Below are positions 30,941 to 41,016 of a stretch of 64,000 nucleotides of DNA, in pieces. Every line of letters starts with the position of its first letter. Within the stretch, counting starts at the first letter, position 1. The stretch lies in NCBI GenBank assembly GCA_964016885.1, contig OZ024740.1:28892001-28956000 (forward strand). Direction: 5' to 3'. Position numbers and translations under genes: made by a program. The stretch is from Eledone cirrhosa. Its lineage: Eukaryota. Below the pieces are notes generated by a model. It made no database searches. It saw only the letters and a list, made by a program, of their open reading frames with translations, and was not told the DNA's origin.

Positions 30941-31135
30941 ATATTTAATATATATATATTTAATATAGAAAAGGGTTCTACAGGACAAGAACTGTTTCAT
31001 TCGGGAGAAATCATCATGAATCCGACTGTCCAAGTACTTGGACAGCAGTCGGCTTCCTGATGATTTCTTCCGAATGAAACACTTCTCGTCCTGTAGAAGC
31101 CATTTCTATATTAAATATATATACATATTAAATAT
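30941..31135. repeat. Near-perfect palindrome with a hammerhead-like motif in each arm
   Basis: Centre caagtacttg (31031-31040); + arm CTGATGA-tttcttccgaat-GAAAC at 31057-31080. Confidence 0.8.
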
Positions 31136-31290
31136 AAGTAGAAATAAACACAGTAAATTCTGCGTCTAAAATTACGAGTGTAGATTATACCACAAATGTT
31201 TTATATATTTAAACTGAAGCATACATTAAGATACAAGATTTCCTATACATACCGTATCAATAACGATTTCATCTCTCGAACAGACTAAAG

Positions 31291-31353
31291 ATTTAATCTG
31301 TTTCGCTGATGAAATGCCTAATCTTTAGACATTTCATCAGCGAGAGATTAAAT
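31291..31353. repeat. Short hairpin with CTGATGA on both strands
   Basis: tcgCTGATGAaatgcctaatctttagacattTCATCAGcga. Confidence 0.75.
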
Positions 31354-31398
31354 GAAACAAAACACATCTAACAAGAACTCACGCAAGTAAATAATGTA

Positions 31399-31592
31399 CC
31401 TCGTGGGTTGAAAGCTATACGTGGGGTGAGTGGTTATGCTAGACATAATAGCCTAATTACACTCATCTTATAAGCTCACATAGATAGGGAGCCGAAATAC
31501 AAATAAAATATAGAGTTATTAACTCAAAATGTAATTAGGCTATTATTTCTAGCATAACCACTCACACCACGTATAGATTTCAACCCACGAGG
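31399..31592. repeat. Fold-back element (about 63-bp arms) with a decayed hammerhead-like loop
   Basis: cctcgtgggttgaaa...gcctaattaca / tgtaattaggc...ttcaacccacgagg; loop contains gctc...ggagcc-GAAA. Confidence 0.8.
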
Positions 31593-31630
31593 TTATTTTA
31601 TAATATATATATAATATATATATATATATA

Positions 31631-31926
31631 TATTAGAAAGTGAGGTTTTTTTACAAAATGAAAAATAACCGAGGTGTCCTACACGAGTGAAAGTATAAAG
31701 AATAAAAGATGAAATCGAAAATGCAACTGGAGTCTTATTTAAAAAAATATATATATATGAGAAAAACCACAGACCCTCCATCTCAACTCTACTTTTGAAA
31801 AGCAGAAGAACTGCGAAACCGGTAAAGGAATCAAATAAATATATATATTTTTTAAAAAATAAGACTCCAGTACCATTTTCGATTTCATCTTTTTTTCTTT
31901 ATACTTTCACTCGTGTAGGACACCTC
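31631..31926. repeat. Fold-back element with a hammerhead-like motif in the loop
   Basis: Arms 31671-31755 and 31840-31926; loop motif CTT-TTGAAAA-GCAG aagaa CTGC-GAAA-CCGG-TA-AAG at 31792-31827. Confidence 0.85.
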
Positions 31927-32338
31927 AAAAGAGGGCTCGATAACTTTAATCTGTTATTTTAATAAATATATGAAAATATATATATATATGTATATATATA
32001 TATATATATATATATATATATATATATATATATATATATATATATATATATATATATATATATAAACTAATATTCGAAGTTAACTCATTTTGTCTTTGTT
32101 TTCTTTTTCTTTTGCTCGTTCTGTTTATTGGCTCGTTCCATATATATATATATATATAGGATATGTGTTCCTTCACGCACAAGGCGCTAAGGTACGCATG
32201 TATTGTCCAACCAAATGCCAGTGTGGTTCAATGGCAGGTTAATAAATTAACGAGCCAGAACAAATATAAACAAGGTTTAGCAAATAATGAAAAAGTTTCA
32301 AAATAAATTAAAAAAAATTGACTTTACCTACTATAGTT

Positions 32339-36974: not shown

Positions 36975-37222
36975 ATATATTAACAAATGGAAACTATATT
37001 TATAAAACCATATTTATTTCATTATACATATTTCAAGGGCCACCATTGACACATACATATATATATATTGACACATACATGTATATATATGTATGTGTGT
37101 ATAGATATATAGATATATTAACAAATGGAAACTATATTTATAAAACCATATTTATTTCATTATACATATTTCAAGGGCCACCATTGACACATACATATAT
37201 ATATATGTATGTGTGTATAGAT
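36975..37222. repeat. Tandem duplication of about 138 bp
   Basis: atattaacaaatggaaactatatttataaaacc...caagggccaccattgacac occurs twice. Confidence 0.85.
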
Positions 37223-37409
37223 ATATGAACGTGTGCGTGTGTGTGCGCACGGCTACGTATGTTCGTGTGTGTGTTTGCAGATGTGTTCGTTGTGTACTCT
37301 AGCAAATCCAAAGAATGCCATTTAAGTTTCGACTCAGGGTTGTAGGTGACATTGCTGATCAAATTACACATCATCATCATCATCAACTACATCTAGTACT
37401 GATATAATA

Positions 37410-39250
37410 TTAACGACAACAACAGTAATAACAACAATAACACGTGCAGTAATGGCAACAACAACAATAACAATGACAGCAGCAGCAATGACACCAACAA
37501 CAACAACGACAGCAGCAGTAATGACAACAACATCAACAACGGCAGCAGCAATGACAACAACAACGACAGCAGCAGCAATGACAACAACAATAACGACAGC
37601 AGCAGCAATGACAACAACAATGACAGCAGCAATGACAACAACAACAATGACAACAGCAGCAACTGAAGCCAAGAATAAGAAGCAGTAAAAGACACTGCAA
37701 TACGGTGGACTAACGTGTGTGTATGTGTGTGTGTATGTGTGTGTGTGAAAGAGAGAGAGAATGTGTGTGTGTGTCTGTGTGAGGGTGTGTCCGTGTAAGG
37801 GTGTGTTTGTGTGAAAGGGGGAGAGAATGTGTATGCATGTGTGTGTGTGAAAGAGAGAGAGAATGTGTGTGCATGTGTGTGTGTGTGTGTGTGAAAGGGG
37901 GAGAGAATGTGTGTGTGTGTGTGCGTGTGTGTGTGTGTGTGAGTGAAAGAAAGAGAGAATGTGTGTGTGAAAGAGAGATTGTGCGCGCGCGCGTGTGTGT
38001 GAAAAACAGAGAGAGAATGTGTGTGCATGTGTGTGTGTGTGTGCAAATATGTACATATGCTTGTGCATGTGTATGTGTATATGCATGTATGTGTGTAGAT
38101 TTGTCTTCTGGATTTAAGTGACAGCTTTACAGCTAAGAATTCCTCAGCAATGTCTTCGGGAATTATAATGGCCGATCTGATAACGTTACACCCTCCTCCC
38201 GCTAACATCTCACTACTTCTCGTTATGGCGTCTTCATGTCTTCAAGTCTCCTGCTTTGGAAACTCATTGACAATCACGTGGTCGTCGTCGTCGCTGGCAT
38301 CAACGTTGTCATCGTTTTAAATGGTGTTCATCATGATGATGATGATGATGAGGGTGGTGGTGCTGGTGGTGGTGGTGGTGGTGGTGGTGGTGGTAGTGGT
38401 GGTGTGGTGGTGGTGGTGATGGTAATGATGATGGTGGTGATGGTGGTGATGGTGGTGGTGGTGGTGGTGGTGATGATGGTGATGATCAGGGTGGTGGTGG
38501 TAGTGGTGGTGGTGGTGGTAGTGGTGGTGGTGGTGGTGATGTTATGTTTATCTTTATGTATATATTCGTGTTGACGTTGTTGGTGATGATGTTTCTGATG
38601 ATGATGATGATGGTGGTGGTGATGATGATGATGATGATAATGATGATGGTGATGGTGGTGGTGATGATGGTGTTGTTGTTATGTTTAACTTTATGTTTAT
38701 ATTTGTGTTGATATTGTAGTAGTAGCAGTAGTAGTAGTAGTAGTAGTAGTAGTAGTAGTAGTAGTAGTAGTAGTAGTAGTAGTAGTAGTAGTAGTAGTAG
38801 TAATAGTAGTAGTAGTAGAAGTAGCAGAGGCAGCAGCAGCAGTTGTTATTGTTGATGTTATATTTGTGAGATTTAGAAAGGGTGGGGAGTTAGAGTAGAA
38901 ACTGGAATAGAATAGTGATAGTGACAGGGGAAGAGAGAAACATAGAAAGGGTGAGAGGGAAGCTAGGAGGAAGGGGAGTGACGGAAGGTGGGAGGAAGGG
39001 GAGTGATGGAAGGTGGGGGAAGAGAGGGTGAGGGAAGGTGGGAGGAGGGGGGAAGTGGGAGGAAGGGAGGGTGAATGAAGGTGGGAGGAAGGAAGGGTGA
39101 GGGAAGGTGGGAGGAAGGGTGGGGGAAGGTGGGAGGAAGAGGGAGTGAAGGAAGGTAGGAGGAAGGGAGGGTGAGGGAAGGCGGGAGGAAGGGAGGGTGA
39201 GGGAAGGTGGGAGGAAGGGGGGAATGATGGAAGAGAGGGAAAGAGAAAAG
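37410..39250. repeat. Cluster of simple repeats: (ACA/GCA)n, (GT)/(GA) compound, (GGT)n, (GAT)n, (TAG)n and a purine-rich GGAAGGTGGGAGGAAGGG minisatellite
   Basis: Seen directly. Confidence 0.9.
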
Positions 39251-39284
39251 AGAATGCTGAAAATAAGAATGCACACGTTTATGT

Positions 39285-40125
39285 GTGTGTGAGTATATAT
39301 GTAGGTATGTGTGAGCATGTACGTATGTGTGAGCATGTAGGTATGTGTGAGCATGTAGGTATGTGTGAGTATATATGTACGTGTGTGTGAGCATGTACGT
39401 ATGTGTGAGCATGTACGTATGTGTGAGCATGTACGTATGTGTGAGCATGTAAGTATGTGTGAGCATGTACGTATGTGTGAGCATGTATGTATGTGTGAGC
39501 ATGTAGGTATGTATGAGCATGTAAGTATGTGTGAGCATGTAGGTATGTGTGAGCATGTAGGTATGTGTGAGCATGTAGGTATGTGTGAGCATATATGTAT
39601 GTGTGAGCATGTAAGTATGTGTGAGCATGTAGGTATGTGTGAGCATGTACGTATGTGTGAGCATGTAAGTATGTGTGAGCATGTAGTTATGTGTGAGCAT
39701 GTACGTATGTGTGAGCATGTAAGTATGTGTGAGCATGTAAGTATGTGTGAGCATGTAGGTATGTGTGAGCATGTACGTATGTGTGAGCATGTAAGTATGT
39801 GTGAGCATGTAAGTATGTGTGAGCATGTAGGTATGTGTGAGCATGTACGTATGTGTGAGCATGTACGTGTGTGTGAGCATGTAAGTATGTGTGAGCATGT
39901 AGTTATGTGTGAGCATGTACGTATTTGTGAGCATGTAAGTATGTGTGAGCATGTAAGTATGTGTGAGCATGTAGGTATGTGTGAGCATGTACGTATGTGT
40001 GAGCATGTAAGTATGTGTGAGCATGTAAGTATGTGTGAGCATGTAAGTATGTGTGAGCATATATGTATGTGTGAGCATGTAAGTATGTGTGAATATGTGC
40101 GTATGTGTGAATATGTGCGTATGTG
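39285..40125. repeat. 18-bp minisatellite GTATGTGTGAGCATGTA(C/A/G), about 46 copies
   Basis: Seen directly; explains the MLTHTY and MCEHV pseudo-ORFs. Confidence 0.97.
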
Positions 40126-40279
40126 CCAATCAACTGAGAACTTATGAGATAGTAAAAAAAAAAATCAGCGAACAAAAGAATTATGTATACATATATATAT
40201 ACACACATGTATCTATGTATATATATATATATATATATATATATATATATATATATATATATATATATATATATATATG

Positions 40280-41016
40280 TAGTGTATTTTGTAATACACT
40301 GTATGCTTTATTAAAAGCATTTCGAAGACCTTATGCTATTGTTTTAGAGTAGTGACAGTCTCACTTACTTTAAATTTTCAGCAAACAGGGGAGATAATGC
40401 TGAGAGAGCTCTGTTTCGTACTGATTGGTACTTATCAAAGCCAAGTACTCCACCTGTTTGCTGAAAATCATGAATGTTTGATTCTTATAGAATTTCTAGT
40501 AATAATCAGGAACTGATTATACAGAGCGGTTGCCGGTCAAGCAGAAATTGAAAATTAGAATTGGCGCTCTGAAATAGCTATATATATATATGAATGTATA
40601 TATAGTGTATTTTGCAATACACTGTATGCTTTATTAAAAGCATTTCGAAGACCTTATGCTATTGTTTTAGAGTAGTGACAGTCTCACTTTCTTTAAATTT
40701 TCAGCACTGCTTGACCGGCAACCGCTCTGTATAATCAGTTCCTGATTATTACTAGAAATTCTATAAGAATCAAACATTCATGATTTTCAGCAAACAGGTG
40801 GAGTACTTGGCTTTGATAAGTACCAATCAGTACGAAACAGAGCTCTCTCAGCATTATCTCCCCTGTTTGCTGAAAATTTAAATAAGTGAGACTGTCACTA
40901 CTCTAAAACAATAGCATAAGGTCTTCGAAATGCTTTTAATAAAGCATATAGTGTATTGCAAAATACACTATATATACATTCATATATATATAGCTATTTC
41001 AGACCGCCAATTCTAA
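40280..41016. mobile_element. Tandem + inverted element (unit, partial unit, inverted unit) with a hammerhead-like motif in each orientation
   Basis: 40280-40385 is repeated at 40603-40705; 40280-40545 is inverted at 40707-40970; GCT-TTGATAA-GTAC caatca GTAC-GAAA-CAGAGCTCTC-TC-AGC at 40810-40852 (+) and 40399-40441 (-). Confidence 0.85.

Follow-up and report, generated by a model that had tools for sequence, protein, structure and literature searches.

What are the short palindromic elements that crowd a (TA)n microsatellite tract in the octopod Eledone cirrhosa, and how did they come to lie there? The tract lies in a stretch of 64,000 nt (assembly GCA_964016885.1, contig OZ024740.1, positions 28,892,001 to 28,956,000; hereafter the window, numbered from its first letter) of a 3.0-Gb genome. 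An earlier note, made from the sequence alone, counted at least ten short inverted or partially tandem elements at 30941–41016 and derived them from many families of Penelope-like elements (PLEs). The count holds: about 11 insertions from about 10 families lie within (TA)n at 30951–37035 and 40253–41017, arranged as inverted and/or partial tandem repeats, and 37200–40180 is simple repeat only. The PLE origin, the association with (TA)n and the multiplicity of families were also supported. We propose that insertions have piled up here within a single (TA)n tract, likely through rounds of target-primed reverse transcription carried out by Hydra-type PLE proteins that cut TA.

We named the elements E1 to E11 in window order. 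A genome DNA search with each family returned the top-scoring copies, a sample biased toward query-like copies. Five families were additionally searched by exact motif, and the first 30 matches in genome order served as a less biased sample. Copy numbers range from hundreds to tens of thousands per family genome-wide.

Two-armed copies carry a single tail

In every family examined, the 3′ end is fixed at either of two positions: the short end falls at an internal TA-rich site, and the long end carries a tail of ~25–160 nt. In the genome-order samples of five families, the tail was present on exactly one arm in 29/30 two-armed copies (P 3e-8 against 0.5), and single arms were mixed (37 long, 49 short). 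The E1–E11 set displayed pseudo-long terminal repeat (pLTR) or partial tandem structures with 5′ truncation, and an inverted piece lay at the 5′ junction of 48 of the 86 E3, E7, and E8 arms. (TA)4 occurred within 200 nt of 30/30 E5, 29/30 E8, 25/30 E1, and 23/30 E7 copies, versus 35–41% in the control.

Arms of the same copy shared minority variants 2.4- to ~18-fold more than arms of different copies did (8/8 families), yet they differed at 0.8–7.3 per 100 sites. The two arms are therefore genomic DNA of some age that came from a single source, and their concordance may owe something to gene conversion between them. In vitro, a PLE tail is made by reverse transcription from two internal start sites (PMC11167929). 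Together with the one-tail rule and the arm concordance, the position of the tail between two such sites suggests, as the simplest model, one coupled event in which each site is used once.

Four families, and probably a fifth, are ends of autonomous PLEs

E1, E7, E8, E10, and probably E3 are truncated pLTR or 3′ ends of autonomous PLEs, mostly of the Hydra clade. E1 (30951–31124, +) is a pLTR fold-back of another Hydra-type PLE than the window's own (see below), with the hammerhead core CTGATGA at 31057; the basal pair of stem II is U-U, and in this copy stem III is damaged. E3 (31634–31926, +) has two arms, represents the 3′ terminus of a longer element that is probably a PLE, and contains an intact U3-A8 hammerhead at 31795 (TTGAAAA / GCAG-CTGC / CCGG / GUA); a small E8 fragment (31927–31975) follows it. 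E7 (33753–35592, unstranded) is a long fold-back of the 3′ untranslated region (UTR) or pLTR of a Hydra-type PLE, and E8 (35654–36498, unstranded) is a fold-back of the 3′ UTR of another; both carry the tail on the right arm. Their motifs are hammerhead-like: CCGAAGA (U4C) at 33791(−) and 35347(+) in E7, CAGAAGA (U4A, with U-U at the base of stem II) at 35723(−) in E8, with a mutated copy at 36338(+). E10 (36880–37035, −) is the truncated pLTR of a further Hydra-type PLE, cut within hammerhead stem II; its relatives carry the full hammerhead.

The earlier note had held that the elements lack an open reading frame (ORF). This is true of the pieces in the window, but all five families are linked to ORFs elsewhere. 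For E8, a PLE ORF ends 897–919 nt upstream in 7/20 top loci and ~955 nt upstream of the motif in 3/30 genome-order loci, and the tail leads to an ATG in L201. The E7 tail leads into an ORF in two independent loci (L485; L505/506), and an ORF ends 1.5 kb upstream in L292. The E1 tail leads to the start codon of a reverse transcriptase (RT) in L374 and L283; the longest E1 copies end ~290 nt upstream of the core, yet the tail runs into the ORF. The E10 tail leads into the start of an RT in L293 and L014. In two loci, E3 extends 950 nt or more upstream; in L427, a weak GIY-YIG fragment lies ~1 kb upstream (Pfam E 0.02, below the cut-off). The partner ORFs carry subsets of the Hydra-clade motifs: RWR and DKT for E1; RWR, CxxC, and CxH for E7; RWR and the linker for E8 and E10. 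From the top BLAST matches it had seemed that E3 has an invariant 5′ end and that E1 folds back about an invariant centre; the less biased samples rejected both.

Two further observations concern the ends. By eye, a GCTC...GAGC stem recurs in several unrelated families, 0–7 nt past the short end or just before a start codon. We saw it in the tails of E1, E2, E7, E8, and E11 (as ACTC...GAGT in E1 and GCT...AGC in E11) and upstream of the ATG in L506, L201, L014, and L345; it was not obvious in E3, E4, or E5. The stem is a candidate RT-binding element. Short ends in TCT often run into (CT)n and then (TA)n (E7 in L486, L489, L492, L500, L508, L510, and L512; E1 in L045 and L058; E3 in L122), which suggests slippage at or after the initiation of reverse transcription as a source of compound microsatellites.

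E2, E4, and E11 are ORF-less hammerhead units

E2, E4, and E11 look like non-autonomous, retrozyme-like elements: ORF-less, circularly permuted units of ~320–480 nt. E2 (31136–31593, −) has a unit of ~430 nt with its hammerhead core at 31340; in the window copy a local inversion scrambles stem II, and a short inverted piece lies at the 5′ end. E4 (32156–32938, −) is a partial tandem of a 481-nt unit with cores at 32899 (intact) and 32417; its hammerhead combines CTGACGA, GAATC/GATTC with a long loop 2, and the palindromic CCGATCGG. E11 (40253–41017, unstranded) has a unit of ~320 nt in an inverted plus partial plus full arrangement, with U3-A8 hammerheads (TTGATAA/GTAC-GTAC) at 40438(−) and 40813(+) whose GUC site is CUC in the window copy.

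The unit's own 3′ end precedes a full unit in 19/20 E4, 21/23 E11, and 13/24 E2 loci; among the 24 E2 loci, 7 do so via a short interspersed element (SINE) and 9 do not reach the unit start. Up to three units stand in a row. Each family has the ORF-less tandem unit with one type I hammerhead that is typical of retrozymes (150–450 nt), E4 being slightly longer. A suspected chimera of E4 and a PLE in L241 was rejected, since (TA)n separates the two. In 7/24 E2 loci (L089, L092, L099, L110, and others), the genome's common SINE-like repeat lies antisense between E2 units, so the repeat apparently moves with the unit as a component of it.

On the window's contig we also noticed long tandem arrays of a 466–469-nt unit at 5738331–5752439 and 14044540–14051131 (L346–L362). 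Among the units listed, 31 and 15, respectively, each carry a canonical-core hammerhead pattern, and the first array ends in an inverted copy. From their sequence, the arrays appear to be classic retrozyme-like satellites.

E5 and E9 carry a tRNA-like module instead of a hammerhead

In E5 (33061–33311, unstranded), the 3′ portion of a 259-nt unit forms a perfect fold-back. Longer copies show the whole tandem unit: a leader comes first, then a 71-nt tRNA-like cloverleaf (Ser(CGA) by ARAGORN; Rfam RF00005, 44.3 bits), with a run of T5 beginning 12 nt beyond it; the short end and a tail of 40 nt complete the unit. The module may derive from tRNA-Gln. E9 (36600–36870, unstranded) is an older fold-back of the same family, 75–83% identical to E5. 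Among E5 subfamilies (82–89% identity), the A and B boxes and the T5 run are kept and the anticodon arm differs, so the module is probably not a decoding tRNA. Exact matches, versus reversed controls, numbered 328/0 for the arm and 506/0 for the 5′ part of the tRNA. No hammerhead or other ribozyme was found in 6/6 loci with a scan tolerant of changes at U4, nor by Rfam at E≤10 on L514.

The module is internal, unlike the 5′ tRNA-derived head of a tRNA SINE: 506/512 exact matches continue upstream, and 6/512 begin at tRNA +1 after four A/T bases. Because so few begin at +1, the templates were probably read-through or circular RNAs; transcripts started at +1 by Pol III, or monomers made by RNase P, are not supported as the main template. 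Instead of a LINE-like (long interspersed element-like) 3′ end, E5 copies follow the PLE rule of one long and one short end in 8/8 pairs and abut (TA)n. In the window copy, the centre of the fold-back is the CATG at 33203–33206, the junction of T-stem and acceptor, and the tail is on the left arm only. Arms start at this CATG (tRNA positions 61–66) in 16/30 genome-order arms, although pairs are not independent. This start accounts for both the window palindrome and a recurrent arm spacing of 161 nt, found in 7/24 of the E5 pairs among those listed.

E5/E9 thus show all the hallmarks of PLE insertion, look non-autonomous, and likely hitch-hike on PLE machinery. One reading, which we think possible but less likely than not, is that the family is a new PLE-mobilised passenger in which the cloverleaf would replace the hammerhead as a promoter or RNA-processing mark, stall RT at the T-arm, and seed (TA)n with palindromes of fixed size. 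We found no paper on a tRNA-module element moved by PLEs, judging from titles and the beginnings of abstracts.

Hammerhead cores vary among families and are abundant

The earlier note reported that many elements carry CTGANGA, stem II, and GAAA. The layout of a type I hammerhead is kept in seven families, and stems I–III are pairable in all of them, with low predicted probability in several monomers, but the literal CTGANGA is confined to three: E1 and E2 (CTGATGA) and two E4 units (CTGACGA). The cores TTGAAAA (E3), TTGATAA (E11), CCGAAGA (E7), and CAGAAGA (E8) depart from it, and each core is fixed in most copies of its family. A core with U4, G5, A6, A9, GAAA, and NUH (C3-G8 or U3-A8), window copy included, was found in 32/36 E1, 22/24 E2, 19/20 E3, 20/20 E4, and 23/23 E11 copies. 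Most copies in the window are damaged; intact forms, canonical or U3-A8, are limited there to E3, one E4 unit, and the neighbouring PLE. E5 and E9 have no hammerhead, the E6 and E10 pieces are incomplete, and none was seen in the elements at 2701 and 33594. The five unrelated stem pairs named in the note were all recovered: GAATC/GATTC in E4 (32899−), GCAG/CTGC in E3 (31795+), GTAC/GTAC in E11 (40813+ and 40438−), ATCAAGCC/GGTTTGGAT in E7 (35347+ and 33791−), and GTTGCA/TGCAAC in the element at 5836. The hammerheads of E3 (31758–31828) and E4 (32810–32915) have a common stem I (CCTT/AAGG) and a CCG..CGG stem III; a common origin with core covariation (U3-A8 in E3, C3-G8 in E4) is possible.

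The motifs exceed chance. When the descriptor was relaxed to permit covariation at C3-G8, a short insert, and a loop 2 of greater length, it gave 3 matches in 30941–41016, one of them a doubtful fold of the scrambled E2 copy, versus a mean of 0.08, and 0/100 block-wise dinucleotide shuffles reached 3. A mismatch-tolerant scan gave 9 matches versus 1.3 (0/30 shuffles). The strict descriptor found none in this region, and the only Rfam hammerhead match was at the PLE 3′ end (26599–26669), below the gathering score. These searches miss the present variants, and thus their negative results are no evidence of absence. Genome-wide, four exact core patterns gave ~94,000 matches, which count arms and not insertions, versus 5,200 in reversed-pattern controls: 14,915/660 for CTGANGAG..CGAAAC, 30,327/4,544 for TTGANAAG..CGAAAC, 25,814/0 for the E1 type, and 22,900/0 for E8. 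The exact E7 pattern gave 964/0; CTGANGA..GAAACCGGTA was uninformative (22 versus 9 in the control).

In 30 genome-order copies of the E1 type, loop 2 varies freely, while stem I is paired in 22–27/30 copies and the three paired positions of stem III in 27–30/30; A-T/G-C exchange occurs in stem I of the E1 superfamily. Pairing of stems I and III alongside a variable loop 2 points to selection on the fold, although related copies are not independent. Fold-back pairs all face outward, and read-through transcripts are predicted to form hairpins of −103 (E1), −165 (E5), and −516 kcal/mol (E11). In a whole E1 fold-back copy, the predicted pair probabilities of stems I and II were 0.0. Fold-back transcripts are thus predicted to bury the hammerhead, which would make hairpin RNA and active ribozyme alternative states. 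The earlier note saw such hairpins as potential ADAR or siRNA substrates; their use by ADAR or Dicer would be plausible. We predict that the hammerheads act as weak, dimer- or protein-assisted processors of tandem transcripts; they are probably not needed for insertion itself.

The neighbouring PLE is of the Hydra type

Beside the stack lies an autonomous, 5′-truncated Hydra-clade PLE (26455–30874, −) with (TA)n at both ends. Its frame (28288–30873, −) is open over 862 aa and holds RT together with a GIY-YIG domain at the C terminus in a single ORF (YRDD; NIVYAC..TYIGST). The translation contains RWR, ADKT, YRDD, CNCRVSINC (CxCx5C), CNLC..E (CxxC-E), and N..CPH (CxH), and by sequence the ORF fits the definition of the Hydra clade (PMC8557442). 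A first label, Neptune, was rejected on the CxCx5C linker. We found 1,018 homologues of the ORF at E≤1e-20, with an Argonauta hians protein, the sole one bearing a species name, among the 120 listed; a Pfam scan of the ORF and a PDB sequence search gave no match. The PLE is truncated at (TA)n and continues in a 1.8-kb 3′ UTR to 26455, with a canonical type I hammerhead at 26619–26656, 165 nt from the end. Its full-length relatives have the structure pLTR-ORF-pLTR, with a hammerhead at both ends. The pLTR of this PLE matches none of the families E1–E11.

Further elements of the window

E6 (33361–33453, +) is a 3′ fragment of another frequent family (80 loci collected), whose longer relatives carry a half hammerhead of GAAA and stem III; the window piece has no hammerhead. 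A TA-rich, unclassified element at 33594–33750 (unstranded) belongs to the same family as the one at 2701. Further families lie at 3466–3518, 5836–5890, and 6083–6490, with hammerhead motifs in two of the three; for the last (the element at 6099 of the earlier note), the motif was seen only in relatives (L315). What the note took as one element at 3466–3745 is two, the hammerhead family at 3466–3518 and tail pieces of E3 at 3555–3744.

At 11451–24243, the window also contains L1/Tx1-like LINE copies arranged in tandem on the minus strand, and an ORF1-like frame precedes each of them; one copy (19365–22796) retains an intact 1,144-aa APE-RT ORF (Pfam RVT_1, Exo_endo_phos). A 24-bp satellite of ~785 copies fills the window end (45194–64000). 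In another locus (L297:2-3815), Helitron-like helicase frames, recognised by eye from their motifs, adjoin an E8 PLE insertion.

Discussion

How would such a stack arise? In the mechanism that we propose, a GIY-YIG domain would nick (TA)n, and reverse transcription would start within the RNA at one of two fixed sites, so that either the short end or the tailed long end results. Synthesis would usually abort after 0.1–1.5 kb and switch strand or template, leaving a 5′-truncated inverted arm that ends at the other start site. The TA left on the flanks of each insertion would be the target for the next. The templates would be mRNAs of autonomous PLEs (E1, E7, E8, E10, and probably E3) and multimeric or circular RNAs of ORF-less passengers (E2, E4, and E11 with hammerheads, E5/E9 with the tRNA-like module).

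Several observations weigh against this account. The window copy of E1 has no tail on either arm and breaks the one-tail rule. Short internal TA runs inflate the (TA)4 counts, and by a crude classing (TA)n lies at the 5′ junction of only 2/86 E8, E7, and E3 arms. The link between E3 and an ORF comes from one locus and a sub-threshold Pfam match, and no autonomous partner for E2, E4, E5, or E11 was found among 12 upstream regions of other PLE ORFs. The fixed changes in E7 (CCGAAGA in 17/19 copies) and E8 (CAGAAGA in 20/20) remove U4 and leave these motifs hammerhead-like only; the predicted probability of stem I in monomers is ~0 in E3, E7, E8, and E11, and that of stem II is ~0.1 in E1.

Could the elements be something else? 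That the fold-backs are long-read or assembly artefacts, as near-perfect palindromes beside a microsatellite might suggest, is refuted at the level of families. Besides the divergence between arms, the E5-type joint recurs in run X1, where 10 contigs contain it, and in X9, which comes from a different study and has it in 4 raw Illumina reads with 4 starts; opposite-strand E1 joints occur in X9 and X10 (one start place each). E1 and E5 do resemble the perfect small palindromes beside TA that miniature inverted-repeat transposable elements (MITEs), fold-back DNA transposons, or TA-targeting Helentron-type elements would leave. We consider such an origin very improbable: fold-back centres vary between copies, many copies are single-armed, the ends are asymmetric with one tail, the units occur in circular permutation, and five families continue into RT ORFs. 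Slightly less remote, though still improbable, is the strongest form of the earlier note's inference, in which the adjacent ORF mobilised all the elements and all of them are ribozyme retroelements of the non-autonomous kind. The circular, hammerhead-bearing units of E2, E4, and E11 fit it, and so does the open adjacent frame, whose Hydra-clade motifs make it an enzyme of the right kind. However, its pLTR is shared with no family, the apparent fusion of E4 to a PLE dissolved at (TA)n, and E5/E9 have no hammerhead. For E1, E7, E8, and E10, which join PLE ORFs of their own, the idea is already refuted; these and probably E3 are derived from pLTRs, as the note supposed, but as ordinary truncated copies of autonomous elements.

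A different doubt concerns function. The motifs of E7 and E8, and perhaps E1, may be dead relics kept as protein-binding folds and not ribozymes, a possibility that we take seriously without favouring it. The fixed U4C and U4A changes, a pyrimidine mismatch at 10.1–11.1, and weak monomer folds speak for it, and hammerhead mutants did not impair insertion in vitro (PMC11167929). U4C lowers hammerhead activity in vitro (PMC3088659); we found no mention of U4A in the part of that paper available to us. On the other side, stems I–III, GAAA, and the NUH site are all kept, E1 stems covary, and both U-U at 10.1–11.1 and U4C occur in natural active hammerheads (PMC3088659, PMC7229834).

An origin by PLE-driven reverse transcription agrees with known systems. 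Hydra-clade PLEs with a C-terminal endonuclease (Craig et al. 2021, PMC8557442) have the same RWR/RWK and DKT motifs, CxCx5C linker, and CxxC and CxH around E and N; they insert into (TA)n and carry hammerheads, partial tandems, an inverted truncated copy, and a tail at one end. They were described from 23 proteins, mostly cnidarian, whereas here we see a major expansion in one octopod genome (92,722 first-look candidates), with 2.6-kb ORFs, UTRs of up to 1.8 kb, and non-canonical hammerhead cores. The minimal hammerheads found in PLEs (Cervera and de la Pena 2014, PMC4209133) are likewise of type I, with a short palindromic stem III, an extra nucleotide before stem II, and U3-A8 covariation; they too come in many unrelated families per genome, mostly in truncated PLEs, with opposite-strand pairs 100–700 bp apart. 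Here, in contrast, U4C and U4A cores are fixed in families, and ~89,000 matches of the four patterns exceed the control, versus 2,000–9,000 per genome there, obtained with different descriptors.

E2, E4, and E11 resemble non-LTR retrozymes (PMC7229834; bioRxiv 10.64898/2026.07.22.740005), which are ORF-less tandem units with one type I hammerhead (320–480 nt in our families), presumably mobilised by PLEs. They differ in having mostly 1–3 units with inverted arms and tails of the PLE type in place of long arrays. E5/E9 recall tRNA-derived SINEs, Schistosoma Sm-alpha, and the Helenus and Cassandra TRIMs (miniature retrotransposons with terminal repeats; PMC6765202, PMC10886601) in their short non-autonomous unit, tRNA-like module, A and B boxes, and varying anticodon arm. 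Unlike these, they hold the tRNA inside a circularly permuted unit, with a T5 run 12 nt later and the PLE tail rule at the ends; they have neither LTR nor hammerhead, and the copies read have no poly(A) end. In Octopus vulgaris, 31 recently active PLE families have been reported (PMC13282606); we found no hammerhead analysis in the available part of that paper.

Taken together, these results describe mostly known PLE biology in an unusually rich form; these families may already be on record in Repbase/Dfam, in the O. vulgaris repeat library, or in the family files that supplement PMC8557442. The E5/E9 family goes beyond this, as does the one-tail rule in its quantified form. Short palindromes that would pass as "MITE-like" or unclassified, tens of thousands of them in an octopod genome, are the ends of Hydra PLEs, and their copies amount to a large natural library in which hammerhead cores vary. 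The one-tail rule places a sharp constraint on the unresolved second-strand step of PLEs and is testable in the existing in vitro PLE system; if our reading is true, every two-armed PLE insertion would arise in a single coupled event, with one use of each of the two start sites of reverse transcription. The tRNA-module family, if true, would extend SINE-like parasitism to PLEs.

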